From positions 2,144,001 through 2,208,000 of the forward strand of contig OY969767.1 in assembly GCA_963702895.1 (NCBI GenBank): a stretch of DNA of 64,000 nt. The letters run 5' to 3'. The position numbers were made by a program, and so were the translations under genes. The stretch comes from an uncultured Elusimicrobia bacterium. Lineage in GTDB: Bacteria > Elusimicrobiota > Elusimicrobia > 2-01-FULL-59-12. Positions 40,183 to 59,300 of this stretch are shown one piece after another. Within the stretch, counting starts at the first letter, position 1, and every line of letters begins with the position of its first letter. The notes under the pieces are model-generated. The model had not been told where the DNA came from. It saw nothing but the letters and a program-made list of their open reading frames with translations, and made no database searches.

Positions 40183-40290
40183 AGCTGGGGATCGGGATCG
40201 TCCGCCACACATCCGGCGGACGAGCGCCTGATGTCTGGCGCTCGAACCGACGACCTGTCGCCAGACACCTGGCGACTGCTCTACCAACTG
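40183..40290 (-). pseudogene. Disrupted partial duplicate of tRNA-Thr
   Basis: Matches the adjacent tRNA-Thr, but with a double hairpin in the T-loop, a hairpin replacing the anticodon arm, and no 5' acceptor strand. Confidence 0.75.
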
Positions 40291-40332
40291 TCCCGTCCTC
40301 TATACTCGTCCGCCAGACGTCTGGCGAAAATA

Positions 40333-40408
40333 TGGAGCTGGGGATCGGGATTGAACCGACGACCTCCTCCTTACCAAGGAGGTGCTCTACCAACTGAGCT
40401 ACCCCAGC
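40333..40408 (-). tRNA. tRNA-Thr (GGT)
   Basis: GCTGGGGTAGCTCAGTTGGTAGAGCACCTCCTTGGTAAGGAGGAGGTCGTCGGTTCAATCCCGATCCCCAGCTCCA. Confidence 0.95.
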
Positions 40409-40654
40409 AAAAACGGCAAAGCAGAAATCAGCCCCACCCGCTTGTTAAGCTCGCGAATGCGAGCGAGAATGATGGGGCAGTCCCGACGATTATGCACTCG
40501 CTTTGCGAGTGTTATGCAGAGGACGGGACAGAGAGCAGAAAGCAGAAATTTGGCATTGAGTCTCGTTTATAAAACAGCCGAGTCTTCGAGGCCGGCCCCA
40601 TCTCTGTACTCTGCATTCTGCTCTCTGCTCTCTGCTCTCTGCTCTGCCTCAAAG

Positions 40655-40865
40655 TGGAGCGGGTGATGGGAATCGTCCGCCACACACCTGGCGGACGAGC
40701 GCCCGTTGTGTGGCGCTCGAACCCGCTATGCGCTTAAGCGGGTGACCGGAATCGAACCGGCGTGTGCAGCTTGGAAGGCTGCCGTTCTACCATTGAACTA
40801 CACCCGCACCCGCTTAAGCGCATGCAGCTTGGAAGGCTGCCATTCTACCATTGAATTACTCCCGC
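40655..40865 (-). pseudogene. Split outer tRNA-Gly (TCC) carrying a T-loop insertion and a nested tRNA
   Basis: 5' half at 40865-40824; 3' half ending in CCA at 40727-40655 with insert at 40674-40719. Confidence 0.7.
40737..40807 (-). tRNA. tRNA-Gly (TCC), intact, no encoded CCA
   Basis: GCGGGTGTAGTTCAATGGTAGAACGGCAGCCTTCCAAGCTGCACACGCCGGTTCGATTCCGGTCACCCGCT. Confidence 0.88.
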
Positions 40866-41275
40866 TCAAGCGCGCCGAAGCAGCTTGCTCACCACCGAGA
40901 CTCTGGCGGGGCCACCATCGCCCCCGCTAAAAAACAGGAGAGCGAAGGTCGGTCCAGTGACGCACCATACGCACCCCTGAGGGGCTTGCGTATGGCCATC
41001 ATCCAGAGGAACAGGAACTGATGGTCGGACCGATGGTACCATTGAACTACACCCGCAAAATCGAATGAAACCTACCACGACGGCATGGCTTTGAAAACGA
41101 ATAGAAGAAGTTCCCTGCCGGCGGGTGAAACTATATCAAATCAGAAGGACGGCGCTCACGAGTCGAATGGGAGTATCGGGGTATCGGGGTCACGGCCAAC
41201 GGCGTGAATGGTCAATGGTCAATAGTGAATGGTTGAGAAAACTATTGACCATTCACTATTTACGACGTCTGCCGT

Positions 41276-43048
41276 TCACTTGATAACCACCACCTGCCCC
41301 GTCTTTTTGGCTCCACCTTCGGCCTTCAGTTGATACACGTAGACCCCGGAGGCCACCCGGTCGCCGCTCTCATTGGTCAGGTCCCAGGTGACGGAGTCGC
41401 TTGATCTGGGCAGCGTCTTTACGTGATGCCCCGAGACCGTGAAGATCTTGAGCTCGGTATCGACCGTGAACTGGTCAAAAGTGATCGACCTGGCGGCGTG
41501 CCGGTCGCTCCGCCAGGGGTTGGGATAGACCCGGACCTGATCGAGAGCGGAAGCATGGCTCTGGTCGACAGAGTAGCTGTTGGCAACGAGGGGATGAGGG
41601 TAAGTATAGGGGGTGTAATAGACGGTCCACACGCCTCCAATATACTTGTAGAGCCGACCGGCCTGAATGATGGCTGGATCGACCGTTGGTGTGGCGGGCG
41701 AGGCAACCCAATAGGCATCCCCACCCACCTGCTGTCCATTGGCATCCGCTCGCGGTAGATTGGTGCAGCTGAAGTCCGGAACTCCTGTGCCTCGTCCAAC
41801 CCCATGTTGCGTCGTGCCATTGAAGTTGTCGTTCAGATTGTAGAACTGTGTATTTTCCGTCAGGGGATTGGGTTCGCAGGCCGTGCTGCCAGACCGAATC
41901 TCCGCCTTCTTCTCCGTCCTGTTCCCGGTGTTATTCCAGAAGTACACGTTGTCCGCTTGGCCGGGATGCCCCGTCTGGCTGTCACATCCCTGCAGATTCA
42001 CGATTTCAATGCCCGGTGCGGATGTGCCTGTCCAGATATTGTTGAAGAAAAGTCCCCAGCCGCCACGCATATTCGCCCACCGATACCCTCGCCCGCCGGA
42101 TATCGTGTTCCCGTAGTACTCAACGATCATCGTGCCGGTCTGTCCTGGCGTTGGCGGATAGCTTTCCCAGTTCTGCATCCCGTGAATGTCCCACTCTGGA
42201 CACGTCCCGCTTCCTGCGGCATTCGTCATGTCCCACGAGTTGTATCGCATGACCACCCGAGCGGATTGTCCGATTTCCGTCCAGCCTGCATCAGGAATCG
42301 AGTACGTGGACGAATAGTGAATCGTGTTGTCCTCGAAGAACAGTTGATCCGCCGTGCCGTAAGCGCGCTCCGGGCCGAACTCGTCCCACTCGCTCCACAT
42401 CGTGTCATGGCCCATCACGGACAGGATGAAGCGGCAGCGGTCGAAGTCATTTTTGGCGATGACGCCGCGGACCTGGCCCTTAACCTTGATCGCAAACGTG
42501 CCGCTCCCCGGAACCGAACCATCGTTCTGAATGCGATTGTTCAGGATGATCAAGTGTTTGAGGATGGGTGCGGTGGTGGGTCCGTAGACGTAGATCGCCG
42601 CGGAGTTGGTCATCGTCGCCATGTTCAGGTCAAACGTGAACCCGCTGACCTTGAACAACTCATGGTTGGCGAGTGCCGTTGGGCTGGGGTGAATGTCAAT
42701 GATCGCGTCACCGCGCGTAATCGTGAGCTTGTCCCGCCCCGGCCCCTGGAGGTGAATTCCCCGAGTCAGTCTCAATGTGTTGATCCATGTAGCCGCTCCA
42801 CGTCCCTTGGGGACTATGACCGTATCTCCCGGACTGGCGGTCGCTACGGCTGCTGCGACATCTTCATAAGAGGGGCTGGTCGCGGTAATCGTGGCCGCCT
42901 GCGCTGCAGGGACAGCCAGGAGCAAGAGAAGGCTGTATCGGAGTAACGGAGTAACGGTGTATCGGGGTAACACCTCTAAGAGCGTAATGTGTTTACGTTG
43001 CCGTGACTCCGATACTCCGATACCCCGATACGCCGATACGAAGTTCAC
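41276..43048 (-). CDS. Secreted beta-helix protein with YPNP/FlgD-Ig (T9SS type A-like) C-terminal domain; array gene 7
   Basis: GTG start overlapping upstream stop, AQA signal cleavage, YYTPYTYPHPL motif, shared CTD. Confidence 0.8.
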   Translation of the reverse strand: MNFVSAYRGIGVSESRQRKHITLLEVLPRYTVTPLLRYSLLLLLAVPAAQAATITATSPSYEDVAAAVATASPGDTVIVPKGRGAATWINTLRLTRGIHLQGPGRDKLTITRGDAIIDIHPSPTALANHELFKVSGFTFDLNMATMTNSAAIYVYGPTTAPILKHLIILNNRIQNDGSVPGSGTFAIKVKGQVRGVIAKNDFDRCRFILSVMGHDTMWSEWDEFGPERAYGTADQLFFEDNTIHYSSTYSIPDAGWTEIGQSARVVMRYNSWDMTNAAGSGTCPEWDIHGMQNWESYPPTPGQTGTMIVEYYGNTISGGRGYRWANMRGGWGLFFNNIWTGTSAPGIEIVNLQGCDSQTGHPGQADNVYFWNNTGNRTEKKAEIRSGSTACEPNPLTENTQFYNLNDNFNGTTQHGVGRGTGVPDFSCTNLPRADANGQQVGGDAYWVASPATPTVDPAIIQAGRLYKYIGGVWTVYYTPYTYPHPLVANSYSVDQSHASALDQVRVYPNPWRSDRHAARSITFDQFTVDTELKIFTVSGHHVKTLPRSSDSVTWDLTNESGDRVASGVYVYQLKAEGGAKKTGQVVVIK

Positions 43049-45057
43049 TTGATCACCACCACTTTCCCCGTCTTTTTGGCTCCGCCGTCCGCCTTCAGGT
43101 GATACACGTAGACCCCGGAGGCCACCCGGTCGCCGCTTTCGTTCGTCAGGTCCCAACTCACGGAGCTGCTTGATCTCGGCAGCGTCTTCACGTGATGCCC
43201 CGAGACCGTGAAGATCTTGATCTCGGTATCGACCGTGAGCTGGTCAAAGGTGATCGACCTCGCCGCGTGCCGGTCGCTCCGCCAGGGGTTGGGATAGACC
43301 CGGACAGGCGGAGGGTCGGAGGTTCTGGCGGCATAGTCCGGGCCTGGCCCGCAGAGTGTTGGGTAACGGACACAGTCAGTCCGGATCGGGTGCGGGTAGG
43401 TGAAGGGCGTGTAATATGCCATCCAGGTGTCGGGCGCGGCGCATTTGTAGAAAGTCCCCGCAATCGGGCGGGCTGGATTGACGCCCACCATGCCGGTCAT
43501 GTCCGAGCAGGATTGATCCGTTGCCCAGTAGCCAACACCGGGCGTGCAGGTTGCCGGGCGCGCGGCCAGCGTGCCGCACCCAACACCTCCACCGGCCGTT
43601 CCGGTGCCGTCAAAGGACCCCGCTTTTTGCGAAAAGAAATCTTTGTTTTCGGCAATCGGCGATCCCGCTCCCATGTTCAGCCAATTGATATCACCATCCC
43701 TCACCGTGAATCGAGGTGCGACGCCGGCCCAATTGGGCTCGATGGATCCACTCCGATAGGGAGGGACCATGGGAGTCGTGTATTGTGATTTCTTCCAGCA
43801 ATTCCCATAAGGATCGCCTGTGAATTTCTGGCAGTAAATGTCACTCGTTTCGCCGACTGATCCATACAGATGATTGGGCTGCCAGGGAGATGCTGCGTCA
43901 CTGCAGCAATTTTCACTACCTAACTCCAACGGTATTAACACGACCCCGTCGGATCTGGTGTTCCAATTGCCCCAGTAATAGGACTCGGTCGCATGCTGGA
44001 CATAGTTTGAATTGACAGGCCAGAGCCTGTCTGCACACTCTTCTCTCACAGACGTGCCCGACTTGCCTGTTGTTGTCGTCAACAGGCTATTCATAAAGAC
44101 CAAGACCATGCCGCCCCGTTGATCGATCAGATTGTTCAGATATCCGGGAGTTGTCCTGTTCCATTTATTTCCATAGATTTCAATGACCATCATGGACGCA
44201 TTGCCGCAGGTTGAACTCCCAATGCATCCGGCACCGCCCGGCTGATTGCCATGAATGTCGTAAACGTATCCAAAATTGCCATTAAAGGTGTTATAGCGTG
44301 AGGCATACCTTCCACCCTGCCCCCCACTATTCATCATTCCATTGGTGGATGTGTTATAAACGTTATCCTCGAAATACAGATTATTCCCATCACCGAACGC
44401 GCGAGAAGCTCCAAACGCATCCCATTGGACATGGTCGTTCCCGTAAGCCGATGTACTGCCGCCGTTAATCACATTATTATCAACGACACCGTAAAACGTC
44501 CCACTCACGTAGATCGTCCGCGACCCTTTTGCTGTGATTTGGCAGTGGTCGATCCGGACGAACACGGGGATTGCTGTGTTTTGAAAGAGGGTAACAACTC
44601 CAACATTCGAAGCTGCGGGAGCGTCTAAAGTGAAGCCCGATATTCGAAACCGATCGGAACTGTCCGGGACGCTGGGCGCAAACGTGATCAGCGGCGCGAT
44701 CGTTCCTGTAATCTTTGTCGCCAACGCGGATGCACCTCGGAGAACGATGCCTTTGGTGATGGTGAGCGTTTTGTTCCAGGTCGCCGCGCAGGCGGGAACT
44801 TGGACGGTGTCCTGAGACTGGGCCGCGCTCACGGCCGCCTGCACGTCCGCCTGCGAACAGCTGGTGGCATTGATCGTGGCCGCTTGCGCCGCCGGAGCAG
44901 CCAGCAGCAAGAGAAGGCTGTATCGGAGTAACGGGGTAACGGGGTATCGGAGTAACGGAGTAACGGTGTATCGGGGTAACACCTCTAAGAGCGTAATGTG
45001 TTTACGTCGCCGTGACTCCGGTACTCCGATACTCCGATACCCCGTTACGAAAATCAT
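43045..45057 (-). CDS. Secreted beta-helix protein with shared CTD; array gene 6
   Basis: SCSQADVQAAV module, GCGTLAARPATCTPGVGYWATDQSC motif, CTD. Confidence 0.82.
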   Translation of the reverse strand: MIFVTGYRSIGVPESRRRKHITLLEVLPRYTVTPLLRYPVTPLLRYSLLLLLAAPAAQAATINATSCSQADVQAAVSAAQSQDTVQVPACAATWNKTLTITKGIVLRGASALATKITGTIAPLITFAPSVPDSSDRFRISGFTLDAPAASNVGVVTLFQNTAIPVFVRIDHCQITAKGSRTIYVSGTFYGVVDNNVINGGSTSAYGNDHVQWDAFGASRAFGDGNNLYFEDNVYNTSTNGMMNSGGQGGRYASRYNTFNGNFGYVYDIHGNQPGGAGCIGSSTCGNASMMVIEIYGNKWNRTTPGYLNNLIDQRGGMVLVFMNSLLTTTTGKSGTSVREECADRLWPVNSNYVQHATESYYWGNWNTRSDGVVLIPLELGSENCCSDAASPWQPNHLYGSVGETSDIYCQKFTGDPYGNCWKKSQYTTPMVPPYRSGSIEPNWAGVAPRFTVRDGDINWLNMGAGSPIAENKDFFSQKAGSFDGTGTAGGGVGCGTLAARPATCTPGVGYWATDQSCSDMTGMVGVNPARPIAGTFYKCAAPDTWMAYYTPFTYPHPIRTDCVRYPTLCGPGPDYAARTSDPPPVRVYPNPWRSDRHAARSITFDQLTVDTEIKIFTVSGHHVKTLPRSSSSVSWDLTNESGDRVASGVYVYHLKADGGAKKTGKVVVIK

Positions 45058-48000
45058 TTGATCACCACCACTTTCCCCGTCATTTTGGCTCCGCCTTCGG
45101 CCTTCAGGTGATAGACGTAGATCCCGGAGGCCACCCGGTCCCCGCTCTCATTGGTCAGGTCCCAGGTGACCTGGCTGCTTGAGGTAGGCAGCGTCTTCAC
45201 GTGGTGCCCCGAGACCGTGAAGATCTTGATCTCGGTGTTGACTGTGAGACTGTCAAACGTGACGGACCTCGTACTGTGACGGTCGCTGCGCCAAGGGTTG
45301 GGATAAACCCGCACGCTGTCCAAATTCGCCGAAACCAGCCTCACCCAGGCACTCGCCCAGGCGCTGGTGCCGTACGCATTGGTCGCCTGCACGCGCAGCG
45401 TGTAGTCTCCCGGAGCAAGATTGAGCGCTCCCAATTGGAAGCGCGGCGCGGTCGTCGCCATAGGGGCTCCGTGGACGATTCCCTGAGCAGCAACTTGACC
45501 CGCCATGGATTGGAAGATAGGCGCTCCCCCCGCGCGCGGGACGAGCTCCCACTGAAATCCGGTCGCTCTGGCAACCTCAGGGATGGCGATCTCACCGCTG
45601 ATCCGAAAGTAACGGCCTTCGACCCCGCGAAGGTCCGGCACGGCCGGCGGCGTGTTGCCGCCACCAGGCGGAGGGGGTGGCAGACCCGTTCTAAGCGGGT
45701 GGGGATAAGGATAAGGCGTATAGGAGGTTGACCAGGTGTTGGGCGCGGTGCATTGGTAGAGCGTGCCGGAAATCGGACTTGCCGGACTGGCACCGACCCT
45801 GCCGGTGAGATCCGTGCAGGATTGGTCCGTGGCCCAATAACCAACACCGGGCGTGCAGGTCGCCGGGCGCGCGGCCAGCGTGCCGCACCCCATCCCCACA
45901 GTCCCATTGAAACCCGCCTGATGATTCCAATAATCAACATTTTCCGTAATGGTGTAAGGCGATCCGACCGCGGCATCGGCGCAGTAGTCCGAGCCTTTGG
46001 TCATGGGGCGGAGAATTCCCCCACCGTAGTTCGCCCATACATACGAATTTTGAACATGCTGGGAGTACGCCGGGGAAGCGGGGCTTTGACAAGAATCACA
46101 TGAATACTGTGCATAGTACGGCTTGGCATAAGAAGAATCACTGGAGTTGTAAAACATTAACTGCCAACTACCCCTATGCGCCATCCAGGTGGAAAAATCC
46201 GGGCTATTGACGATCTTATTCCCGTAGTACTCGGATTTGATCGTGGACCATTGCTCACAAGAATCCTGATTAGGGTTGCAAGAACCGGCCACCGAAGGGC
46301 TGCAATTGGAATTCCCGCATCCGCTGGGGCAGGTATAGCCCGGGCTTGTCGCCATGCTCTGCAATCCGTGATTGACCCACAGGCCCGAAAGGCCGGCGGC
46401 ATTGGCCAAATCCGTGGTGTTGTACCGATAGACATAACCCGGCGCGCCCTGCCCGCTGTCGGTCAGTCCGCCCTCCATGGCCCGGGTAAAACTGATGGTG
46501 TTGTCCTCGATGAAGAAATTCGTCCCGGTCCCATACTCCCTCGGAACCAGCGCCCAGGAGACCGCGTCTCTCCCCATCGTTCTGAGAGAGTACACGACAT
46601 TGATGAAATGATTCAAATAGGCCACGCCATAAACCGGCCCATTAATACTCACACCTGTGTGATCGGAATTTCGGAACGTGTTGTGATGGATTTTGATATT
46701 GGAAATGACTTTCGAGGAACTCCCGTTTTCGATATAGAGCAGGCCCCGGTGTTTCGATAGCGAATGGCCATCCAAGGTAAAACCCGTGATTTCGAATTCC
46801 TCATCATTGTTTTGGGCCGTCTCATCCGGAACATAAGCGATCTGGCCATGGTCGGAGGGTCCGTTCAGGGTAATCGTGGTGGGCCCCCCGATGCCACCCT
46901 GCAACTTGATGCCTTGGGTGAGGCAAAGCAATGTATTCCTTCCACCACAGCTCGTCTCGTTGGACCATGTGCATGAACCGGCCGGGACGCTGATCGTGTC
47001 CCCTCGTTCCGCACGGCTCACAGCGGCCTGGACATCCGCCTGCGAACAGCTGGCGGCGGTGATCGGGGGCCGAACAAATTCATGGGCTCCTATGTCCGGC
47101 GCAGAACCATAGAGCACCTGCCGGCCGCCGGAATCCCGATAGAGCCAAATGGGTGCGCCATCTTCCCACGACAGGGGCGCCGCGAGCGTCACGCGGTTCG
47201 TGGCGTAATCGATCGAGCGGATCTGCGCCACATTCGTCACACGGCCAACAGCGATCCAGTCGGGGAATAACGTGACGCCTTGGGCCATCGCGGCACCCCA
47301 GGTGCCATCCTGAAAGTATTGGGCGTCACGGACCACGAGCGTCACGGAGTTGGAACCCGCGCCGTTGGCTTGGGTGAGGAACGTTCCGCTATCAATAGCC
47401 GGTGAATTGGTCCGAAGCTGAAGATCCGGAAGGGTCAAGCTGGAGGGTTGGGTCAGATCTGGGCTGACAAAGAGCGGATCGCCGTTGGGGGTCAGCCAGT
47501 TCGAAACGACCGTATTCCCGACGGAGTCCTGGATATCGAGTCCACCATAAAGAACGGCCCGGGCGTTGCCATACACGATGTTGTTCTTGATCACATTCCC
47601 TGTGTTCAAGCTCGGATAATAGAAATGGATTCCCATCTGCGGTTCCGGGCAGGTGGAATGCGTGCAGGTGTGGTAATACGGGTAACCATACCCGTTTTTG
47701 TAAACGGTATTGCTGAAAATCCGGTTATTGAGACCGCCGATCGAACCATGCCCGGTCGGCCCGTACTTCGGCATCAGCCCGTTGTTCATGCTGCCGTAAA
47801 AAGCGTTGTACCGGACAATGTTCCTGGAGGACGCCAGCGCCAAACTGTCCGCCCCGTCATTGTTCGGATTGGGCCCTGCGAAACCCAGTCTGTTGTTCTC
47901 CACCAAGTTATAGAGTCCGTCTCTGCCAAAACTATCGGTGATCTGCCAAACCCGGTGGCTGTACGACCCGTTGTAGGCGGGGTTGTCGTATTGGGTGGCG

Positions 48001-48938
48001 GGCCATGTCACGCTGCAGGCGCCATTGTCCGCCGGGTACCACGGCTCGTTATGCGCGACGTTGTTTTTGATGACTTGCCGGGTGCCATAGGTGTCCATGA
48101 CGGCATGCCCGGCATAGGCCATGTAATTGTCTTCGATGGTGATGTGGTGGTTGGCCCCTGTGGTGCAGTTGACACCAGCGCCGCCGCCACAGCTTCCGTT
48201 GGGATAGCCCACACGCACCGCGTCGCCGCCTTCGGAAATGGATGTTCCATTACATCCGCCGCCGGCCGCTAACTTATAGAAGGTATTGTGATGCACCCAA
48301 AGGTCGCTGACATAGCACCGGAAGTCCGTTCCGCCAATGCAGGCCTCCGCCATCGTAAAGTTCCCGCCGCGGAAGGGAGAGGTGACATTGCGAAAAGTGC
48401 ATCTGGCGACTTCAACATGATGAGCGCCGTTGCGAATTAAGTAGTCGGAAAAGTCGGTGAAAAGGAGGCCGTCGATTCGGATATAGCTCTGATTAATCTG
48501 CAACCCCCACATGCGCGTCCCGTAAGTCCCTTTGAGTTCGGGGGTTTCGCCGGGAGCGTTTTTGAAGGTGATCCAGGCGCTCGATGTCCCCGAACGAGCG
48601 GGGAGCAGCGCAGTTGCGTATAGGGTGGAGAAGGAATACGTACCTCCTTTCAAATAAACCCAATCGCCTGCGCTGGCATTGGAATTGGCGGTCCCCAACG
48701 AACAATAGTTGCTCGCGGGATCGCTGGCGCTCTGGCAGCTCGCCCAAGAGGATGTCCCCGTTGGGCTCACCCAGTAGGTGGCCGCCTGAACGGCCAACGG
48801 CGAAAATAGAAAATAGACAATAGCAGCAACATACAGACGCGGCGACGCGGTGACGCGGTGACTCGGTGATGTAGCTGTTTCTCCGTATCGGACGCTCCCC
48901 GTGTCTGCGTGTCCCCGTGTCCCCGTGTCGCTTCTCAT
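45054..48938 (-). CDS. Secreted protein with two beta-helix modules, Ig/FN3-like domain and CTD; array gene 5
   Basis: ATYWVSP.G...PDIGAHEF module plus SCSQADVQAAV module, CTD. Confidence 0.82.
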   Translation of the reverse strand: MRSDTGTRGHADTGSVRYGETATSPSHRVTASPRLYVAAIVYFLFSPLAVQAATYWVSPTGTSSWASCQSASDPASNYCSLGTANSNASAGDWVYLKGGTYSFSTLYATALLPARSGTSSAWITFKNAPGETPELKGTYGTRMWGLQINQSYIRIDGLLFTDFSDYLIRNGAHHVEVARCTFRNVTSPFRGGNFTMAEACIGGTDFRCYVSDLWVHHNTFYKLAAGGGCNGTSISEGGDAVRVGYPNGSCGGGAGVNCTTGANHHITIEDNYMAYAGHAVMDTYGTRQVIKNNVAHNEPWYPADNGACSVTWPATQYDNPAYNGSYSHRVWQITDSFGRDGLYNLVENNRLGFAGPNPNNDGADSLALASSRNIVRYNAFYGSMNNGLMPKYGPTGHGSIGGLNNRIFSNTVYKNGYGYPYYHTCTHSTCPEPQMGIHFYYPSLNTGNVIKNNIVYGNARAVLYGGLDIQDSVGNTVVSNWLTPNGDPLFVSPDLTQPSSLTLPDLQLRTNSPAIDSGTFLTQANGAGSNSVTLVVRDAQYFQDGTWGAAMAQGVTLFPDWIAVGRVTNVAQIRSIDYATNRVTLAAPLSWEDGAPIWLYRDSGGRQVLYGSAPDIGAHEFVRPPITAASCSQADVQAAVSRAERGDTISVPAGSCTWSNETSCGGRNTLLCLTQGIKLQGGIGGPTTITLNGPSDHGQIAYVPDETAQNNDEEFEITGFTLDGHSLSKHRGLLYIENGSSSKVISNIKIHHNTFRNSDHTGVSINGPVYGVAYLNHFINVVYSLRTMGRDAVSWALVPREYGTGTNFFIEDNTISFTRAMEGGLTDSGQGAPGYVYRYNTTDLANAAGLSGLWVNHGLQSMATSPGYTCPSGCGNSNCSPSVAGSCNPNQDSCEQWSTIKSEYYGNKIVNSPDFSTWMAHRGSWQLMFYNSSDSSYAKPYYAQYSCDSCQSPASPAYSQHVQNSYVWANYGGGILRPMTKGSDYCADAAVGSPYTITENVDYWNHQAGFNGTVGMGCGTLAARPATCTPGVGYWATDQSCTDLTGRVGASPASPISGTLYQCTAPNTWSTSYTPYPYPHPLRTGLPPPPPGGGNTPPAVPDLRGVEGRYFRISGEIAIPEVARATGFQWELVPRAGGAPIFQSMAGQVAAQGIVHGAPMATTAPRFQLGALNLAPGDYTLRVQATNAYGTSAWASAWVRLVSANLDSVRVYPNPWRSDRHSTRSVTFDSLTVNTEIKIFTVSGHHVKTLPTSSSQVTWDLTNESGDRVASGIYVYHLKAEGGAKMTGKVVVIK

Positions 48939-51900
48939 TTAATCACCACCACTTGCCCCGTCTTTTTGGCTCCGCCTTCCGCCTTCAGGTGATAGACGTA
49001 GATCCCCGACGCCACCCGGTCCCCGCTTTCATTCGTCAGGTCCCAGATGACGGAGCTGCTTGAGCTCGGCAGCGTCTTCACATGATGCCCCGAGACCGTG
49101 AAAATCTTGATCTCGGTATCGACGGTGAGGCTGTCAAAAGTGACCGACCTCGCCGCGTGCCGGTCGCTCCGCCAGGGGTTGGGATAGACGCGGACAGCGG
49201 AAAGGTCCGCTGGCACCAGGGTCACGTTGGCGCTCGCGGGGATCGAAACGCGACCGGCAGTATCGGTCGCGGTGACGGTAATCTGATAGTTCCCGGGGAC
49301 CAGACCATAGGGCGCAAGGTTTGCCACTCCGCTGCTTGTGCTGAAATTGGCCGTCGGTGCTCGGGCGATTGTCCCCGCGGACGTTCCGGGCGCCGGCAGC
49401 GCGCCTGCCGGGAGCGGGGTGACCGACCAGCTGAAGCTGCGAATCTCATGCCCCGGAGCGCTCGCGGTGATCTGAGCGTTCACGGGCAGAACCGTCCTCC
49501 CCCCTAAATCCAACGAGACATAGATTAAGGGCGCCTCACAAACCAGGGGCTTTCCGCCTGGGCCCAAAGTGTTGAAAGCAATGGAGAACGGCGTTGTGGT
49601 CGAATGATTGTAATAGGCGTCAATGCACTTGACGTAGTAGGTGTAGACCCTATTACTCGCTAGCCCTGTAAGGGTTGTCGAGTGAGACGTGCCTCCCGAT
49701 GTTCCAAAAATCGTTGTATAACGATGAAAATCAAGGGCTGGATAGGCATCATATTTGCATGCCGCGGGCTCGTCGGTCACCACTGAAATCGTGGCGTAAG
49801 CATCCCCGATACACGTCGCGGTCCCTGATACAACCACGGGCGGTGTCACATCTTCGGGAGGCCCCAAGACCCCCGGAGCAGAAGGCGGCAGCGGTGTGGC
49901 AGGGTAAGGACAATTGGCCCCCTGGATAAACCCGCCTCGAACGCTGCCGCTGAAATCAATCCGTGTTTCATCCAGGGTGGCCAATTCCAACATTAAGGTA
50001 TTAAACCACCAACTGAGTTTTCTCTGGGGCGTGGAGGGATAGGACGGAAATCCAGCTCTCACGCTTTCGGTGATCCACGTCGTTTGAGCGGCAAGATCTC
50101 CGCCGAAGTATCCTGGGGCGAGTTTCTCGCTGGTAAAGGTCCTGGGGTCCCGATTCGTCCTGTGCCATCCGATAAAACCATACTTCGCGCACCGAGAAAA
50201 TTCATGAAACAAAGCCACAAAGGATTCGCCCTCGGTTCGAAAGGGCCCTTTCACAAAAGGACTTGAAAATTGATCGTTTTGTATTAAACCGTGAATTCCA
50301 AAAGCCACGAGGGCGGACACATCGGCGCAATGATTGAAATCATCGTATTCGATCGTTTGGTCTCTCAGACCAGAGGCATTAATCCCCGCGCCATAAGAGG
50401 GGGTCAGGCTTCTGGCATATTCAGAACTGTCACCCGCAAAATCACAGGAACTGTCATAGTCCGTTGGAGAAAGGAAGGATGAATCATAGCCAATCGTTCT
50501 CCTCCTATAAGTTGCGCCAACATCTCGGAGCGATCGGGTCAGTCTGATAAAGACCTCATGGACGCGGCGGCCGTCTCCCGTGATAGCCTTGTACCGCAAT
50601 AAAGGGGCCACAGCGAGTTCGGCCATCCAGCTGGAACACCAGGCATCCGTCCCTCCTTCCGAATGTTGTCCGGAGGAGTGGACAAAACAATTCTGCGGTG
50701 GGAAATTTTGCAAATTGATCGCTGTTAATTCCGCTTGATTGGTCGTGGTGATGTGCCGATACGCCGTGTTAAACATCTCCATGGCGGCTGTTCTGTATTC
50801 CGGCCTTTCGGTGAGCTCAAACCCATAAACCAGCCCTTCCATGCTGGTCGCCAGAAGCCGCTCGGTCCATAATCTATCGACTCCCCTCAAATGGCCCTGC
50901 CTGTAGGGCGTGACAAAATAAGGGTCCTCATACCACATTTGGGCCATATTCGACCCTGCTTCAAAAGCCGTCTCGTCCCCCGTCAACGCGTAATACTCGG
51001 CCACTCCCCTTAAATGGGAGTATTTGCTGTCTTGGGACGGCTTCCCTGTGAAATATCCCTTCCACACCCCCGTGGTGCCAATATGTTCTGCGAAATAGGA
51101 GCAGGCCCGCAGGGCATGACGGTAATAGCGAACATCGTCCAAATGAGAGTAGCCTGCGAGATAGGTGTCACACATATCGTAGAGCCAGCCCTCGTAGTTC
51201 GAAGCATCGTAGACGCTCCCAGGGTCTGGATTCATTTTATAGCCATCGCCATAGATCGAAGAATTTAGGAAGAGATCGAATTCATCAGAAATAAATCGGA
51301 GACCGGCGAGGTTGGATTTGCTGAGTAATTGTTGCCTGGACATTTGAGGCCCGAATATCCCCGAGGAGGCAAGATACCCTTCCGGATAGGTGGCCAGGAC
51401 TTTCGGCTCGCGGCCGGTCCATAAGGTCTTCTCTCTGACATTATTTTCCACAAAAGAATACGCAGTCCCATCAAAGGCGATGCTCCGGTCCACCACCTCG
51501 GCTTTTTCATCAGAAACAAAAGAGGTCTCACGAAATGGGGCCATCGTTGAACTGGTCGTTCCACCCGAATTCGGATTAATCACGACCATGACGGTGACAC
51601 TGTCCGAGCGCATTTGCGCCGCGGGGAATTGCAGCAAGAGCGACTTGATGCTGGTTCTATTCCCCGAAGCGTTAAAGTGATAGAGAATGGCTTTGGAGGA
51701 AACGTTCGTGATGGGGTCCCCGGAGGGATGCGCTTTGATTTTAACCTTGGCGGCGTCAAACAGGAGCCCTTCCTTGACTGGCAAACCAAACGATACGGTC
51801 GTCGCATCGCTTTGTAATTTCGTAAGACCGATTAAGACTTCTGTTTCGAAAGCGTAGACTGGGCTGCACAACAAAAAGCTTGCCGCGACGATGAGATGCC

Positions 51901-51952
51901 GAGCAACGGAGGGGTGCTTCGCTAAAAGAGGTCTGTTCATGGAATGGTTCAT
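48935..51952 (-). CDS. Secreted (alpha/alpha)-toroid putative glycan-active protein with FN3/Ig-like domains and CTD; array gene 4 (start uncertain, up to 51985)
   Basis: VSFGLPV.EG.L N-terminal barrel-like motif, EYYALTGD helical repeats, CTD. Confidence 0.72.
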   Translation of the reverse strand: MNHSMNRPLLAKHPSVARHLIVAASFLLCSPVYAFETEVLIGLTKLQSDATTVSFGLPVKEGLLFDAAKVKIKAHPSGDPITNVSSKAILYHFNASGNRTSIKSLLLQFPAAQMRSDSVTVMVVINPNSGGTTSSTMAPFRETSFVSDEKAEVVDRSIAFDGTAYSFVENNVREKTLWTGREPKVLATYPEGYLASSGIFGPQMSRQQLLSKSNLAGLRFISDEFDLFLNSSIYGDGYKMNPDPGSVYDASNYEGWLYDMCDTYLAGYSHLDDVRYYRHALRACSYFAEHIGTTGVWKGYFTGKPSQDSKYSHLRGVAEYYALTGDETAFEAGSNMAQMWYEDPYFVTPYRQGHLRGVDRLWTERLLATSMEGLVYGFELTERPEYRTAAMEMFNTAYRHITTTNQAELTAINLQNFPPQNCFVHSSGQHSEGGTDAWCSSWMAELAVAPLLRYKAITGDGRRVHEVFIRLTRSLRDVGATYRRRTIGYDSSFLSPTDYDSSCDFAGDSSEYARSLTPSYGAGINASGLRDQTIEYDDFNHCADVSALVAFGIHGLIQNDQFSSPFVKGPFRTEGESFVALFHEFSRCAKYGFIGWHRTNRDPRTFTSEKLAPGYFGGDLAAQTTWITESVRAGFPSYPSTPQRKLSWWFNTLMLELATLDETRIDFSGSVRGGFIQGANCPYPATPLPPSAPGVLGPPEDVTPPVVVSGTATCIGDAYATISVVTDEPAACKYDAYPALDFHRYTTIFGTSGGTSHSTTLTGLASNRVYTYYVKCIDAYYNHSTTTPFSIAFNTLGPGGKPLVCEAPLIYVSLDLGGRTVLPVNAQITASAPGHEIRSFSWSVTPLPAGALPAPGTSAGTIARAPTANFSTSSGVANLAPYGLVPGNYQITVTATDTAGRVSIPASANVTLVPADLSAVRVYPNPWRSDRHAARSVTFDSLTVDTEIKIFTVSGHHVKTLPSSSSSVIWDLTNESGDRVASGIYVYHLKAEGGAKKTGQVVVIK

Positions 51953-52019
51953 CCTTTCGAGAATTATTCTGTTAGTCTCATGCAACTACTAACGACCAGG
52001 GCACGTCCCCCTGGTCGTC

Positions 52020-55000
52020 TCACCGGATCACCACCACTTGCCCCGTCTTTTTGGCTCCGCCGTCCGCCTTCAGGTGATAGACGTAAATCCCCGAGGCCAC
52101 CCGGTCGCCGCTTTCATTGGTCAGGTCCCAGGTGACCGAGCTGCTTGAGGTGGGCAGCGTCTTCACGTGGTGCCCCGAGACTGTAAAGATCTTGATCTCG
52201 GTATCGATCGTGAGACTGTCAAAAGTGACCGACCTCGCCGCGTGCCGGTCGCTCCGCCAAGGGTTGGGATAGACCCGGACCTGATCGAGATTGGCTGACA
52301 CCAGCGTTACCTGCGCCGAAGCCGGCGAAGAGGCGCTGCCGGAGGCGTCATGGGCCGTGACGGTCACGAGGTATGTTCCCAGGTCAAGGTTCTGCGCGGC
52401 GAGGCTTGCGACCGTAGAAGCCGTGGTGAAAGAGGCGCTTGGAGCATGTCCCGCACTTAGCGTCCCGTGTCTCGCGTCTTGCGTCTCGCGTCCGACGTCA
52501 ACCGCTGTCGGTGCTGGACTCGGGACCCGGAACCCGGGACTCGAGACTTGTGACGCGGGACTCGAGACTCGAGACTCGGGACTCGAGACTTGCGACGCGG
52601 GACTCGAGACTCGGGACGCGGGACCCACCATCGACGTAAACGTCCAACTGAAATACGCCGGCGCCACAGACCCGCCGTAGCCGGCGCGCACTTCGGCGTT
52701 CACCGGCAGATAAGCCGGCAGGTTCAAGGTCGGGGTGGCCAGGCCGCCGGGAGGTGGAGGGGGTGGAGGAGGAGGCGGGGGTGGTGGCACGACGATCGGA
52801 CAGCTGCCGGAGGGGCAATACTCATAGGCTCCGATGTCCCAGGCGGTACCTTGAGGCCGCGACACACCCTCCTTGTCGGTGGCGAACTCGCTTTGCACGC
52901 TTCCCGCATCGATCACCGGTGAGCCGGCCAGAGGCTTATACGATCCATCCAAACGAGGATCGACGTTCAGGCCATGGGCATCGAACCCCAGCGCGCGCCA
53001 CTCGGACCAGGTCTTGTCGGCATCTCGGTAGCGAACGAGTGCGCTCGCACCCTCATGATGGTTGTAGTCCAGCGATACAACGTTAACCCCTCCGGATAAA
53101 TCGATGCTATACCGCCCATTTTTGGAGAGGATATTATTCTGCAACTTTGAAATCGTGATGGTTCGGCCGCCTGACGCGGACGCCCTGAAACCGGTTCGCG
53201 TGTTGGAAACAATCGTGTTGTTGAGTATTTGTAGGTTTGAGATCGTGGCCCCCGCCGCCGTCGCGAAGACCTGGATGCCTTGCTGGGCATTGCCATGGAT
53301 CAGATTGTTGTAGACGAGAATGTTATTGAGCGTTTTGCCGTTCCCTGCTCCGTCGCCGTCCGCGTTAATCATGATGCCGTGCCCGCCGTCACCCACATCG
53401 CGAGGTTGGAGGCTGTAGAGCTCGTTCCCGTAGACTTGCACATCGCTTGCCGCCACAACGATCCCTGCCAGGACGCCCCCCGTAGCCCCCGCATAGACGA
53501 TGTTGTTGCGAACAATCGCTCCAAAGTTTCCCGGTTTGATGTCAATGTCCCCTTCCCCTGCCGTGCCCGCATTGATGACCGTATTGCCTTCTACCACAGT
53601 CCCCGTGATGGTGTCCGCCAGATAGTTGTAATGCCCCATGTAGATACCTTCCAGCGGGGTATTGCTGATCACGTTATCGCGGACCGTAATGTTGTAACAG
53701 CCGTCTTCGGCGTAGCCAAACCAGATCCCGTGATTGTTGACCGGGGTGTCCACAATGTTGTTCTCCACCAGCACATCGTAGATGTTGCGAGTCGGATTCG
53801 CGGTACCAAGCGCGACACCGCCCCACGACGGCCTGATGAGCTGGAACCCCCGTATAGTTATGAAGGCGTTGTCGTTGTGGACAGAGATCGTGCCGCCCCC
53901 CCCGCCTGCATGGGTCAGCGTGGCTCGATTGCCCGGTACCGTCTCCGTCTGCCACACCGCCGTGCCGCTGATCGCGGTGTTGTACTTTGATTGCCCGTCA
54001 AGTCGAAGGGGGCGCTCGGCGTTAGCGCTGGTGCCGACCGGGATGGTGAGGTACTGATCGTCGTTCCACGTGGCGCGGCTTGAGAAGTAGAGGGTGACCG
54101 GCCCAACTTGTAAGGCGCTCTTGATCAGTGTCCAATTGATGTCGCCGCGCCGCTTCCAAGGATTGGCGGCGGAACCGTCCCCCGAAGTAGTGCGGGCATA
54201 ATCAATAAAGTATTCGGTGCCCTCTGTAGCGGTAGATCCGAAAGTCGTAGCGCTCGCCGCGGCCGACAGCGCCGAGACATTCCCGGCCGCATCGTAAGCG
54301 GTCACGCGGTAGCTGTAGGACGTCGAAGGCACAAGGCCCGTGCTTATATAGGAAGTCCCACTGGTGACGCTCGAGATCCAGACCCCATTGCGATAAATAC
54401 CGTAGCCTGCCACCCCGACCGCATCAGTCGAGGCGGTCCAAGAAAGATTGATCGCTGTCGAAGAAACGGCCACCGCCGCGAGGCCCGTCGGCACCGAAGG
54501 GGGGGTCGTGTCCGGCGGAGGGGGTGCTCCACTTGTTGCGGCGACGTAGAGGGTTTTGCTCGCGTAAAGCGGGTAAACCCTCACGCCGAGCGCTCCGCCG
54601 CCCACAGAGCAAGTGTAAGGACTTGCGTTGTCGACCGTGGTCGGGATGCCATCCTCGTAACAAACGACAAAACGAACAAGCTCCGTGTCCGAGGGCGTTA
54701 CAGTAACAAGCCCGCCCGACTGAGAATAGGTCGCGCTCAAGGTGTAGCCGCCCGCCTTGTAGGGATACGCCCCGATGTCGGGTGTGGCATCGTGACCGAA
54801 GTACACCGCCTCCCCGTTGGCCCATGTGAAGGACGGCGTAACGGTGATGGCGTTTCCTGAGATACTCACCACGGTCACGACGTCGGTGCCGACCGTGATC
54901 GTATCGCCCACCACCACATTGCCGCCATATTGCGTGATGGTCGTATCATCATCAGAAAAGTAGCTGGCGTCACCCACCATGAACGTCGTGCCCGTATTGT

Positions 55001-56369
55001 TGGCGGACGTGACCGTCGTGAGCGGACCACCTGCATTTCGTGCGGGTGAGCCAGACTGAAGCGTAAAATCTCGAGTTGCCGCATTGGTCACTAATGGATT
55101 CGTATTCCGGAGAGAATGCGCTTCGGCGTTGATTGTACTCGCGTAATTGATCGATCCGCCTATATCGTAAAAAATATTGTAGTCATGCACGGCGGGAGTA
55201 TCATCATAGACACCGACTGGATTCGTCCCTGGCCACCACGCTTGGTGCCAGATATTGTTCAAGACCCCTCGGCCAGCCGCGACGTTACTACCACGGTCAT
55301 AAGTGACATAATGCGAGGCATATGCGATGGTTTCGTGATAAATTTTGAGGAAAGCCTGTCCGTCCGCAAGCCCAAAACACTGCCCGCCTGCGTTGCCATT
55401 ACTGGACCAGACGTTTCGCCGGAATATCGTATAGGCGTCCAAGCTGGCTGAATTGGTTTCGATATTGGTACAGTGATGTTCACTTCCGGACTCATCGGCG
55501 TAGAAATTCCCCTCATACAGTGAGTGGCCCAAGCCAATAGAATCCTGACCGGATTGAATGAAATCGGTATGAGATGAAGGAGCCGCATTCACATTATGGC
55601 TATAGTTGTTCAGTAGCCTATTTCTTTGCCCAAAGAGATAGATGAAGTCAACCTCGGGGGTGTCGGATTCGTTATAGGCAATGACGTTGCTGTTGCCACG
55701 AACCTGAAAATCTTTGAATGCGGAATGCTTAATCACATTGCCGATAAAGAGACAGTTGTTGGATTGGTATAGCCTAGCTCCGTTGTCCGTTCTTATGGAA
55801 TCTCCTTCAAAGTTCTGTATGGTGTTATTCCATATCTCAACATAATCAGCATTTTGCAGGTAGATCCCATCGTTTCTGGTATTTCCGCCTTCGACGATAA
55901 AACCTATCACTCGAATCCAATCGCCAGTAATGACCCATCCGAAATTCGTCACAGACCCATCAGCCACGAAGGTGATGTAGTTTCCGGCAGACCCCGAGCT
56001 ACTGGCCGTGACTACCTCTGCGTAAGTGCCCGCCTGCACCCGGATCACATCTCCCGCCGCGACGTGATCGGCCGCCCAGTCGATGGTCCGCCACGCCCCG
56101 CCCGAGGTGTTCGTCAATCCGGTGTTGGTGTTGTTCCCATCGGCGCGGACATAATAGGTGGCCGCTTGCGCCGCCGGAGCAGCCAGCATCAAGAGAAGGA
56201 CGTATCGGAGTAACGGGGTAACGGTGTATCGGAGTAACGGCACGACGGCAGCGAGCAGCACAAAGCGAACAGCGCACAGAGCACAGCGTGCGGCATCACG
56301 TTCTCCGCTGTTCGCTCTTCTCTGTTCGCTCTGCGCTGCCGTTGTGTTGATGCGCTGATAACGACTCAC
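52020..56369 (-). CDS. Secreted protein: beta-helix, FN3, beta-helix, Pro linker, Ig-like domain, CTD; array gene 3
   Basis: ATYYVRADGNN, DTTPPSVPTGL FN3, RPQGTAWDIGAYEY, CTD. Confidence 0.82.
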   Translation of the reverse strand: MSRYQRINTTAAQSEQRRANSGERDAARCALCAVRFVLLAAVVPLLRYTVTPLLRYVLLLMLAAPAAQAATYYVRADGNNTNTGLTNTSGGAWRTIDWAADHVAAGDVIRVQAGTYAEVVTASSSGSAGNYITFVADGSVTNFGWVITGDWIRVIGFIVEGGNTRNDGIYLQNADYVEIWNNTIQNFEGDSIRTDNGARLYQSNNCLFIGNVIKHSAFKDFQVRGNSNVIAYNESDTPEVDFIYLFGQRNRLLNNYSHNVNAAPSSHTDFIQSGQDSIGLGHSLYEGNFYADESGSEHHCTNIETNSASLDAYTIFRRNVWSSNGNAGGQCFGLADGQAFLKIYHETIAYASHYVTYDRGSNVAAGRGVLNNIWHQAWWPGTNPVGVYDDTPAVHDYNIFYDIGGSINYASTINAEAHSLRNTNPLVTNAATRDFTLQSGSPARNAGGPLTTVTSANNTGTTFMVGDASYFSDDDTTITQYGGNVVVGDTITVGTDVVTVVSISGNAITVTPSFTWANGEAVYFGHDATPDIGAYPYKAGGYTLSATYSQSGGLVTVTPSDTELVRFVVCYEDGIPTTVDNASPYTCSVGGGALGVRVYPLYASKTLYVAATSGAPPPPDTTPPSVPTGLAAVAVSSTAINLSWTASTDAVGVAGYGIYRNGVWISSVTSGTSYISTGLVPSTSYSYRVTAYDAAGNVSALSAAASATTFGSTATEGTEYFIDYARTTSGDGSAANPWKRRGDINWTLIKSALQVGPVTLYFSSRATWNDDQYLTIPVGTSANAERPLRLDGQSKYNTAISGTAVWQTETVPGNRATLTHAGGGGGTISVHNDNAFITIRGFQLIRPSWGGVALGTANPTRNIYDVLVENNIVDTPVNNHGIWFGYAEDGCYNITVRDNVISNTPLEGIYMGHYNYLADTITGTVVEGNTVINAGTAGEGDIDIKPGNFGAIVRNNIVYAGATGGVLAGIVVAASDVQVYGNELYSLQPRDVGDGGHGIMINADGDGAGNGKTLNNILVYNNLIHGNAQQGIQVFATAAGATISNLQILNNTIVSNTRTGFRASASGGRTITISKLQNNILSKNGRYSIDLSGGVNVVSLDYNHHEGASALVRYRDADKTWSEWRALGFDAHGLNVDPRLDGSYKPLAGSPVIDAGSVQSEFATDKEGVSRPQGTAWDIGAYEYCPSGSCPIVVPPPPPPPPPPPPPGGLATPTLNLPAYLPVNAEVRAGYGGSVAPAYFSWTFTSMVGPASRVSSPASQVSSPESRVSSPASQVSSPGFRVPSPAPTAVDVGRETQDARHGTLSAGHAPSASFTTASTVASLAAQNLDLGTYLVTVTAHDASGSASSPASAQVTLVSANLDQVRVYPNPWRSDRHAARSVTFDSLTIDTEIKIFTVSGHHVKTLPTSSSSVTWDLTNESGDRVASGIYVYHLKADGGAKKTGQVVVIR

Positions 56370-59300
56370 TTAATCACCACCACTTTCCCCGTCTTTTTGG
56401 CTCCGCCTTCCGCCTTCAGGTGATAGACATAGATCCCCGAGGCCACCCGGTCGCCGCTCTCATTGGTCAGGTCCCAGGTGATGGAGCTGCTTGAGGTGGG
56501 CAGCGTCTTCACGTGATGCCCCGAGACCGTGAAGATCTTGATCTCGGTATCGACCGTGAGTTGGTCAAAGGTGACTGACCTTGTGCTGTGCCGGTCGCTG
56601 CGCCAGGGGTTGGGATAAACACGGACCTGATCGAGATTGGCCGAGACGAGCGTCACCTGCGCCGATGCCGGTGAAGAGGCGCTGCCAGAGGCGTCATGGG
56701 CCGTGACGGTCACAAGGTATGTTCCCAGGTCAAGGTTCTGCGCGGCGAGGCTTGCGACCGTTGAAGCCGTGGTGAAAGAGGCGCTTGGAGCATGTCCCGC
56801 ACTTAGCGTCCCGTGTCTCGCGTCTGGCGTCTCGCGTCCGACGTCAACCGCTGTCGGTGCTGGACTCGGGACCCGGGACCCGGGACTCGAGACTTGTGAC
56901 GCGGGACTCGAGACTCGGGACTCGGGACTCGAGACTTGCGACGCGGGACTCGAGACTCGGGACGCGGGACCCACCATCGACGTAAACGTCCAACTGAAAT
57001 ACGCCGGCGCCACAGACCCGCCGTAGCCGGCGCGCACTTCGGCGTTGACCGGCAGATAGTCAGGAAGATTGAGCGTCGGCCTGGACAGGCCGCTGGGTGG
57101 AGGAGGCGAAGACGGCGCCTGCGTCGTAGCGCTTGCCGCGACCGACAGCGCCGAGACATTCCCGGCCGCATCATAAGCCGTCACGCGGTAGCTGTAAGAC
57201 GTCGAAGACACAAGGCCCGTGCTTATATAGGAAGTCCCACTGGTGACGCTCGAGATCCAGACCCCATTGCGATAAATACCGTAGCCTGCCACCCCGACCG
57301 CATCAGTCGAGGCGGTCCAAGAAAGATTGATCGCTGTCGAAGAAACGGCCACCGCCGCGAGGCCCGTCGGCACCGATGGCGGGGTCGTGTCCGGAGGCGG
57401 GGTGCTGGTCGTGTATTCATAGGCTCCGACGTCAGGAGCACTGCCGTAAAGCACCCTCATGCCATCTGATTTCCTGTAGAGCCACACAGAATCGCCGTCA
57501 TTGCGGCTGATGCTGTTGGCCAGGGTCAGCGTATGGGTGAGATAGTCTATGGCTAAAATCTGCCCTGTATTGGCCGCCGATCCTACAGCGATCCAGTCCG
57601 CGTTCGTGCCTGCCCAGCCCGGCTGAAAATACCCGGCATCCTGGAGGATCAGCGTCGTTCCCGATCCGCCGTCCGAAGTGGCCACCGTCGTGAGGGCAGC
57701 TCCGGCATCAATGGCGGGGGAAGTCGCTTGGAGAGTGCCGTTCGAAGGATAGTTGGCGAGGAGAGGGTTCCTGTTCTTCAAGGTGTTATAGGTCGCTTCC
57801 ATGCTGATCGGACCCATCCACTCCCCAGTGTACCCGTCCGCATACGGGAGATTGCCGTTGGATTCCTGAGTTCCTGACCCCCCGGTGTAGATCGGCCAGC
57901 GATTCAGCGTGCTGATCGTGTTGTAGCAGAGGTTGTTCTTGGCACGGCTGTAAGGCGAGTTCGCGGGCATCATCATGCAGCTGAGGTCCGAGGAGGATGG
58001 CCCACCGGCCGAAATGGTGTTGCTGAAGAGATAGTACCGGCTCTGATTGGTGCATGGCACACAGATCCCCGGCGCGGCGAGATCTTGGACGTTGTGGGTG
58101 TAGTTGTATCGCATGATGATGTTCCGTTGCGCCCCATAACTCCCAGACTCCAGCCACGTAAAATGGGAGTTGCCGGTCGGATCGAGCGCGTTCCGAAAGA
58201 CATTGCCCTCGATCAGACTCTCAATGATCTCCGTCGGCCCATTGTGGATGCCATCCATGTGCGCGGGGGACTGAACGCCGGTTTCGTCCGCGTCCATGTC
58301 ATGCAGGACATTATTCCGGATGACGGAGTGGTTCCCACCCCAGTTGATGGCGTCATCGGTCGTATGCGAGATGTCGTTCCCTTCAATCAGCGTGTTGTCG
58401 CCATAGCTCGCAATCCCCCAGGCTGTCCCATTGGACTCCAGGAGATAGTACCACCCGCATCGTGTGATGACGTTGTTTCGGATGATGGCGTGATGCGAAC
58501 GGGAGCCGCTCGCCGGATTGAAGCGGACGCAGGTGTTGCGCTCCGCCGTGATGGAGTTATTCTCCACCGTGACACCGATGGCAGAATTCACGTCCACGCC
58601 GATGGATGACGTACTGCCGGTGTGGATCGTGAACCCCGAAATCGTGAGGTAGGGATGGGTGATGGAGAACCCCCGCACCGTGGGCCTCTGTCCCGTTGCC
58701 GCGGCGATGCTGATGCGAGCGCTGTTCGAGGTGCCGCCGCGCACTGAAGACACGCGCTCGTTGTAAGTCCCGTCATAAACCTCGCAGGTCTGCCCCGCTT
58801 GTGCCGCGTTCACGCAGGCCTGAATCGTCGTGAAGTGGCCGGAGCCATCGGGTTTAACCGTATAGGTGTCCGGTGGCGGGGACACCCCAGGCGTTGCGGC
58901 GACGTAGAGAGTTTTGCTCGCGTAAAGCGGGTAAACCCTCACCTCGAGCGCTCCGCCGCCCACAGGGCAAGCATAAGGACTGGTGTGATCGACCGTGGTC
59001 GGTATGCCGTCTTCATAGCACACCACAAAACGAACCAGCCCCGCGTCGGAAGGCGTGACGGTCACGACCCCGCCGGATTGAGAATAGGTCGCGCTCAGCG
59101 TGTACCCGCCCGCCTTGTAGGGATAGGCTCCAATGTCCGGAGTCGTTGTAGAACCATAGTAGACAGGTTCGCCGTTGGCCCAGGTAAACGGCGACGTGAC
59201 GGTGATGGCATCCCCGGCAACGCTGGCGATGGTGACGACATCGTTGCCAACCGTGATGGTGTCGCCGACAATGAGGTTCCCACCGTACTGGGAGAGGTTC

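Follow-up and report, generated by a model that had tools for sequence, protein, structure and literature searches.

The window, that is, the whole 64,000-nucleotide stretch of DNA analysed here, is part of a single 2.72-Mb contig; the genome is 98% complete. The gene order on the minus strand is tRNA-Gly(TCC), tRNA-Thr(GGT), tuf, and then tRNA-Trp, nusG, rplK and rplA, with a nested tRNA locus at the head of the cluster. This genome is labelled G000 and the other genomes of the family G001-G010; the helix formed between the leader and the trailer of a tRNA gene is called the stalk. The original prediction described an intact tRNA-Gly nested in a split tRNA-Gly, and all the parts that it named were found at their places on the minus strand. 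The features are:

41037-41056, minus strand: 5' piece of a tRNA gene (tRNA positions 1-20) with a T-rich leader, of the leader type found in the syntenic gene of G010.
40874-41036, minus strand: structured insert of approximately 160 nt, which would interrupt the ancestral gene in its D-loop.
40822-40873, minus strand: probably dead piece composed of an 8-nt stalk-like leader and a 5' half (positions 1-44) that begins at 40865.
40814-40823, minus strand: left arm of the stalk, 10 bp, with 2 nt shared with the end of the 5' half.
40808-40813, minus strand: 6-nt tandem duplication of the first six bases of the tRNA, which lengthens the apparent repeat to 17 bp.
40737-40807, minus strand: intact tRNA-Gly(TCC) without an encoded CCA (ARAGORN; Rfam, 72.1 bits).
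40728-40737, minus strand: right arm of the stalk, 10 bp, beginning with the discriminator base.
40655-40727, minus strand: probably dead 3' piece of an ancestral-type gene (T arm, acceptor strand and CCA), matching the orthologs of G004, G006, G008 and G010.
40674-40717, minus strand: double hairpin of 44 nt that splits the T-loop of the 3' piece between G57 and A58 and belongs to a genome-wide repeat family.
40333-40408, minus strand: intact tRNA-Thr(GGT) without a stalk, likewise part of the Gly-Thr-tuf cluster (ARAGORN, Rfam).
40183-40290, minus strand, in the region 40183-40330: apparently dead copy of tRNA-Thr(GGT) just before tuf, in which the anticodon arm has given way to a single hairpin and the T-loop is occupied by a double one.

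A promoter scan of the locus yielded a single weak match, at chance level. Elsewhere in the window, a DDE transposase gene (PF13701; 36829-38175) is located between tuf and tRNA-Trp. Inverted arrays of 7-nt tandem repeats, which represent two of several such families found genome-wide, occupy positions 40516-40647 and 41179-41288. A run of very large open reading frames extends over 45054-63883; four of them showed weak matches to C-terminal sorting domains and some contain beta-helix or fn3 domains.

The complete tRNA predicted at 40807-40737 was recovered by both ARAGORN and Rfam. The genome has 48 tRNA calls, and this was its sole intact tRNA-Gly(TCC); ARAGORN searches allowing introns at a low threshold returned 1307 calls, which were noise and were discarded. 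The GGA codon needs a tRNA-Gly(TCC) under the standard decoding rules, and GGA accounts for 18.7% of the glycine codons in open reading frames of at least 400 aa. The inner gene is likely the working Gly(TCC) copy. It does lack an encoded CCA, as had been pointed out; this is not a peculiarity of the gene, since CCA is encoded by only 11 of the 47 tRNA genes of the genome and is missing from the other 36. Two genes of the CCA-enzyme family were found in the genome (open frames of 457 and 466 aa). No match to RNase Z above the cut-off was obtained in the genome, a weak result since five of 14 control genomes miss RNase Z too.

The 17-nt arms of the inverted repeat (40823-40807 and 40744-40728) are 100% complementary, and they were the only two matches in the window when up to two mismatches were allowed (0.02 expected by chance). 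The 17 bp consist of the 7-bp acceptor stem of the inner tRNA plus a 10-bp stalk, so that the true extension is 10 bp. The 6-nt duplication was seen in only one of the 161 tRNAs scored. Owing to it the acceptor stem is offered twice, and both registers retain the cloverleaf, with folding energies of -47.7 and -40.9 kcal/mol as compared with -29.9 kcal/mol without the stalk. Of the proposal that the repeat would extend or compete with the acceptor stem, the extension was confirmed; competition was not, since the cloverleaf is intact in both registers and more stable than its stalk-less form.

The inner gene is identical to the allele of G004 and G008 as far as the T stem, which is then unlike that of the family. 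Its T arm was matched in two of 301 genomes of the class, its own included, and in the other genome the gene carrying it is unstalked. No exact match to the stalk leader joined to the start of the inner tRNA was found in metagenome contigs, and a genome scan for Gly(TCC) genes gave none with a stalk among the at least 113 genes listed.

Both outer pieces that had been described were present: a 5' piece at 40865-40822, and a 3' piece at 40727-40655 that contains the double hairpin and ends in CCA. They had been taken for the two parts of one split gene. This assignment failed, as the two pieces mispair, with A6 facing A67 and C50 facing A64 in the T stem. The 40865 piece belongs to a different Gly(TCC) allele, characterized by A6 and by a compensatory A10-U25 change in the D stem. 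The piece at 41056-41037 pairs better with the 3' piece than the 40865 piece does, and its T-rich leader is typical of unstalked genes; it is likely the 5' end of an ancestral unstalked tRNA-Gly(TCC). Syntenic orthologs were found in four genomes of the family (G004, G006, G008 and G010). All are plain, stalk-less genes whose T arm and 3' end match the 3' piece of the window. In G004 the Gly(TCC) gene is located at two contig ends.

The D-loop insert of approximately 160 nt had no second copy in the genome at an E value of 0.01; a related 93-nt piece was found in sequencing run X5. Insert starts of similar appearance were observed in tRNA pieces of G008 and at the tRNA-Leu(TAG) of this genome.

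ARAGORN, run with a relaxed threshold, recognised the outer pieces as Gly(TCC) for four of the five junctions tried when they were joined without the hairpin, and CCA is encoded by the outer 3' piece only, not by the inner gene. Both observations would suit the outer pieces being a genuine precursor that yields a second tRNA-Gly once stalked unit and double hairpin have been removed by splicing. Splicing had been proposed for this locus, and we regard it as extremely unlikely: the outer pieces mispair at A6.A67 and C50.A64, ARAGORN made no call if the hairpin was kept, no EndA gene was detected (PF01974, no match in the genome, with positive controls in four archaea), no Rfam intron family was present, and the same hairpin also occurs in tandem 3' stubs lacking any 5' partner. 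A search for group I or group II intron cores by Rfam was negative, and the inserts measure 44 to approximately 160 nt. An integrase island would place an integrase and cargo between the intact gene and the displaced piece; here the 3' piece follows the gene directly, and no integrase domain was found in the upstream open reading frames scanned (16 window proteins). No shared terminal repeat of the kind borne by MITEs was found, the arms differing among isoacceptors and genera. The locus is neither a split or intron-containing tRNA gene, nor a terminal-repeat element by shared sequence, nor an integrase island.

Misassembly or the collapse of strain variants could also be the source of the 6-nt duplication, if not of the whole nest. 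Each of 24 public sequencing runs contains 4-7% of the sampled words, and among contigs from four of these runs none spans the locus, the matches being tRNA-conserved or repeat pieces from other organisms; these runs gave no read support. The duplication is unique among the tRNAs scored, and tRNA-Gly(TCC) was not found in six of the ten family genomes (G001-G003, G005, G007 and G009, three of which are 90-95% complete), indicating that the locus assembles poorly. Against an artefact, the differences between the pieces demand separate histories, the same kinds of parts occur in independent assemblies as well as in a contig of run X3, where a tRNA-Gly is followed by a hairpin-bearing 3' piece, and the assembly is one 2.72-Mb contig. 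An assembly error is very unlikely.

Three reverse transcriptase genes, all with open frames of 507 aa, are located at G000:C1:230277, 463860 and 1962540. A retro-copy origin was considered on their account and rejected, as nothing connects them to tRNAs.

Stalks were scored in other tRNA genes as at least eight Watson-Crick pairs out of ten between the ten flanking positions on each side of the tRNA. By this measure 18 of 47 tRNAs were stalked in G000, 12 of 39 in G007, 10 of 36 in G005 and 13 of 39 in G004, that is, 35 of 114 for the three relatives, which were scored from 42 (G007), 41 (G005) and 44 (G004) Rfam matches with contig-end and unlisted genes left out. Controls with swapped flanks gave 1/2162 (G000), 1/1260 (G005) and 1/1482 (G004). 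Outside the family, 119 loci, for the most part from other phyla, contained 180 scored tRNAs and not one stalk; most of these tRNAs were related Gly(TCC) genes, which makes this a narrow control.

The set of stalked tRNAs was largely the same in different genera. Ala-CGC, Asn, Gln-CTG, Gly-GCC, Pro-CGG, Pro-GGG, Ser-GCT and Tyr were stalked across genera, as were Glu-CTC and Lys-TTT, each with one case at 7/10. Leu-CAG, Leu-GAG, Pro-TGG, Thr-TGT and Gly-TCC were stalked in G000 only, and Met, Val, Phe, His, Trp and Cys never. Asn(GTT) was stalked in 9/9 family genomes and in 0/13 others, and Pro(GGG) in 9/10 family genomes and 0/3 others.

Ungapped alignments of the orthologs revealed changes on both sides at 8 of 11 pairs for Asn and 9 of 11 for Pro. 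The covariation score was reached by none of 500 shuffles for either Asn or Pro-GGG, and sliding the partner strand lowered pairing from 92% and 86% to 25-49%; these figures come from nine or ten related genomes, which are not independent; relatedness inflates scores of this kind, and the shuffle ignores it while the slid control keeps it. To judge from the Asn and Pro orthologs, the leader-trailer stalk is maintained in the family by compensatory changes.

At position 11, which lies outside the region used to select stalks, a G.U pair was present in 28 of 68 stalks and in 4 of 102 unstalked genes, across many isoacceptors. Mismatches at positions 1-10 showed no G.U excess (12 G.U, 11 A.C), and since G.U is no commoner there than A.C, these positions do not tell RNA from single-stranded DNA. 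The Gly(TCC) stalk is paired at 10/10 positions once the duplication is skipped; C faces A at its position 11 and it has no stalked ortholog, so that only its length and its position link it to the conserved class.

Stalked genes were mostly without an encoded CCA (46/53). Arm sequences differ among isoacceptors and genera, and no further copy of the Gly(TCC) arms was present in the window. The right arm resembles positions 36-45 of the tRNA itself. In G000 an upstream piece lay near 14 of 17 stalked genes and near 5 of 30 others; in G004 stalks and upstream pieces were not linked, and 11 of 13 stalked genes had no end-piece of their own nearby. The leaders of the outermost pieces were mixed, 6/21 being A/T-rich and 6/21 like the stalk of the gene itself. 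The cleanest nest was seen at G000:C1:1666618-1666880, where a tRNA-Glu(TTC) lies in an inverted repeat of approximately 30 bp inside a split Glu gene; the halves of the outer gene are contiguous at the T stem, its own flanks pair and its CCA is kept.

The double-hairpin family comprises 33 copies in the genome and none in three shuffles. Twenty-five of the 33 copies have a tRNA no more than 1.5 kb away; sequence this close to a tRNA makes up 3.9% of the genome. A pattern for the hairpin in its T-loop context gave 23 matches in G000, 12 in G007, four in G001 and two in G005; a search of 37 further genomes gave no match. In G004 stalks are present, the double hairpin is absent and no GIY-YIG match lies beside a listed tRNA. 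The T-loop double hairpin is debris separate from the stalk.

Ten matches to GIY-YIG nucleases were found in the genome, six of them within 350 bp of a tRNA, and none in the 64-kb window. The tRNA-linked proteins are approximately 80 aa long, among them one of 79 aa encoded in the region G000:C1:1700931-1701170, and for membership in the Ssn group NCBIfam gave no more than sub-threshold matches. Among 82 loci of GIY-YIG relatives, a tRNA was called in 15; many of the 67 without a call are short contigs. Nine of the 17 tRNAs scored in these loci had an upstream piece of themselves and just two were stalked. The stalk is thus a trait of the family, whereas pieces and nuclease travel widely, and the GIY-YIG protein was rejected as the maker of stalks on the same count of two in 17. 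A phage vehicle was likewise rejected, as viral contigs yielded no hairpin match and two GIY-YIG loci.

Two tandem GIY-YIG genes follow a stalked tRNA-Asn (G000:C1:1812700-1814500), each reading into a tRNA 3' piece and a double hairpin. Two other small GIY-YIG genes, at G000:C1:554279 and 543339, lie far from tRNAs and are flanked by hairpins that look NTS/SRM-like by eye; these two are likely true Ssn homologs. A long tetranucleotide microsatellite was observed directly after tRNA-Ala(GGC), at G000:C1 approximately 1700700-1700830.

We read the locus, with a probability of roughly 0.65, as a stalked replacement gene, likely the working copy, lying among likely dead copies, with a stalk that likely guides excision by a predicted RNase III cut at the junction of stalk and acceptor stem. 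An insert in the D-loop would have interrupted the ancestral Gly(TCC) gene; stalked copies of at least two alleles would have entered when the locus underwent internal duplication or recombination; and the 3' end, no longer in use, would afterwards have acquired its double hairpin. By association, the candidate agent of these events is a small GIY-YIG nuclease that would act in trans. The rescue duplication put forward in the original prediction agrees with this history insofar as the inner copy appears to have taken the place of an older gene, the remains of which lie on either side, and departs from it in having been conceived as a one-off event, since stalk and debris are lineage-wide. Its view that a precursor of the nested locus would need unusual processing is supported.

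Within the Gly-Thr-tuf transcript the stalk would close the inner cloverleaf. E. coli RNase P is slowed by two or more leader pairs that extend the acceptor stem (PMC9433436), and because leader pairing hinders this enzyme, a 10-bp stalk would need another first step. An ideal substrate of RNase III is 22 bp long, and its distal box is approximately 11 bp away from the cleavage site (PMC3867540). The stalk (10-11 bp), the acceptor stem (7 bp) and the stacked T stem (5 bp) would together give approximately 22 bp: 10-11 bp lie on the stalk side of the predicted cut, and the acceptor stem plus the T stem, presumably stacked as a half-site, would have to supply the other 11 bp or so. If RNase III cut this helix centrally, G1 would be released, and the short 3' end that remained could then be trimmed and receive its CCA. 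Ten of the 12 genomes examined from the order encode RNase III, this genome in the region G000:C1:868696-869073, and the genome also encodes the RNase P protein RnpA; gene content does not single out RNase III, since it is near-universal and RnpA is present too. The choice of enzyme is the weakest link of the proposal, and taken alone we hold it tentatively, with the odds somewhat against it. That the conserved stalks point to an undescribed route of excising bacterial tRNAs from their precursors is likely.

The same history could be accompanied by a stalk that is a folding clamp only, blocking mispairing with the nearby pieces and then being unwound or nicked, while RNase P and exonucleases finish the tRNA without RNase III. 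RnpA is present, approximately two thirds of the tRNAs are unstalked, the stalk contributes 11 to 18 kcal/mol to the cloverleaf and in G000 stalks accompany upstream pieces, all of which would fit a clamp. G004 keeps its stalks although most of its stalked genes have no end-piece of their own nearby, and the sharp length of ten pairs plus a G.U suggests a ruler rather than mere stability. A clamp is possible, and for the maturation step nearly as likely as RNase III. A reading without any RNA function would treat the arms either as terminal repeats of a very small mobile cassette of DNA that brought a whole tRNA into a resident gene, or as a by-product of fold-back synthesis with the same outcome. 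It would account for the recurrence of nested layouts, cleanest at Glu(TTC), for the 6/10 GIY-YIG matches near tRNAs, and for a right arm that resembles positions 36-45, as if the left arm had been copied from there; the association of stalks with upstream pieces in G000 (14/17 against 5/30) fits it equally well. The arm sequence is, however, specific to the isoacceptor, with both sides changing together in orthologs, just two of 17 tRNAs are stalked in the loci of GIY-YIG relatives, and G004 has no hairpins yet kept its stalks. The covariation already weakens this reading, which is improbable.

The stalked replacement gene may be part of something larger. About a third of the tRNAs of the family would mature free of RNase P, with RNase III reading a 22-bp helix and freeing both ends at once; the stalked tRNA would be a portable module, functional at any place in a transcript and thus able to replace genes wrecked by a hairpin/GIY-YIG parasite, and the locus would have been caught switching from plain to stalked. 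We offer this as speculation that is rather more probably wrong than right.

In a review, bacterial tRNA genes were termed 'surprisingly uniform' (PMC4033280). A literature search, with subscription papers mostly outside its reach and supplements excluded, retrieved no paper describing bacterial tRNAs with long conserved stalks or with double hairpins in the T-loop. Since even two extra acceptor pairs slow RNase P of E. coli (PMC9433436), special handling of stalked precursors would be needed, and this family, in which compensatory change maintains 10-bp stalks on the same set of tRNAs, must process them by a route for which no description was found. The locus illustrates the in-place replacement of an essential single-copy tRNA gene amid repeats that target tRNAs, and why such sites fail assembly or are misannotated.

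Paired inverted short palindromes in many copies are known from REP/BIME elements with their RAYT (Y1) transposases. The double hairpins share with them the many paired palindromes outside coding genes (33 copies here), but sit in the T-loops of tRNA pieces, and the genome gave one weak, partial Y1 transposase match (23.3 bits, at the cut-off). Ssn GIY-YIG nucleases, which act on single-stranded DNA and are accompanied by NTS/SRM hairpins, likewise combine small single-domain GIY-YIG genes with many short hairpin repeats (PMC11893778); the main text of that paper does not contain the word tRNA, the double hairpin is unlike the NTS motif by eye and no such gene lies at the locus. SegB of phage T4 is also a GIY-YIG enzyme encoded among tRNA genes, and its site includes a T-arm motif, the seat of the hairpins described here (PMC2330249). 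It illustrates that a GIY-YIG enzyme is able to recognise such a motif, but it is a homing enzyme for phage double-stranded DNA, its abstract mentions neither hairpin inserts nor stalks, and the proteins found here have about 80 aa.

Archaeal split and intron-containing tRNAs similarly show tRNA halves with complementary flanks, but need BHB motifs and a splicing endonuclease (PMC4033280); here neither was detected, and the locus contains an intact gene. The RNase P anti-determinant, in which the leader pairs with the 3' RCCA, also extends the acceptor stem by leader-trailer pairs; it is described as approximately 2-3 bp that RNase P unwinds (PMC9433436), whereas the stalks found here have at least 10 bp and belong mostly to genes without CCA. 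The leader-trailer helices of pre-rRNA, cut by RNase III, are likewise formed by the flanks of a stable RNA, with structure rather than sequence kept (PMC3867540), and RNase III is present here as well. The tRNA stalk differs in that it has just 10-11 bp, continues the acceptor stem and is found on a fixed subset of isoacceptors, the cut being here a predicted one. By this analogy the stalk would function as the tRNA counterpart of the pre-rRNA leader-trailer stalk, reduced in length to a single helical turn.
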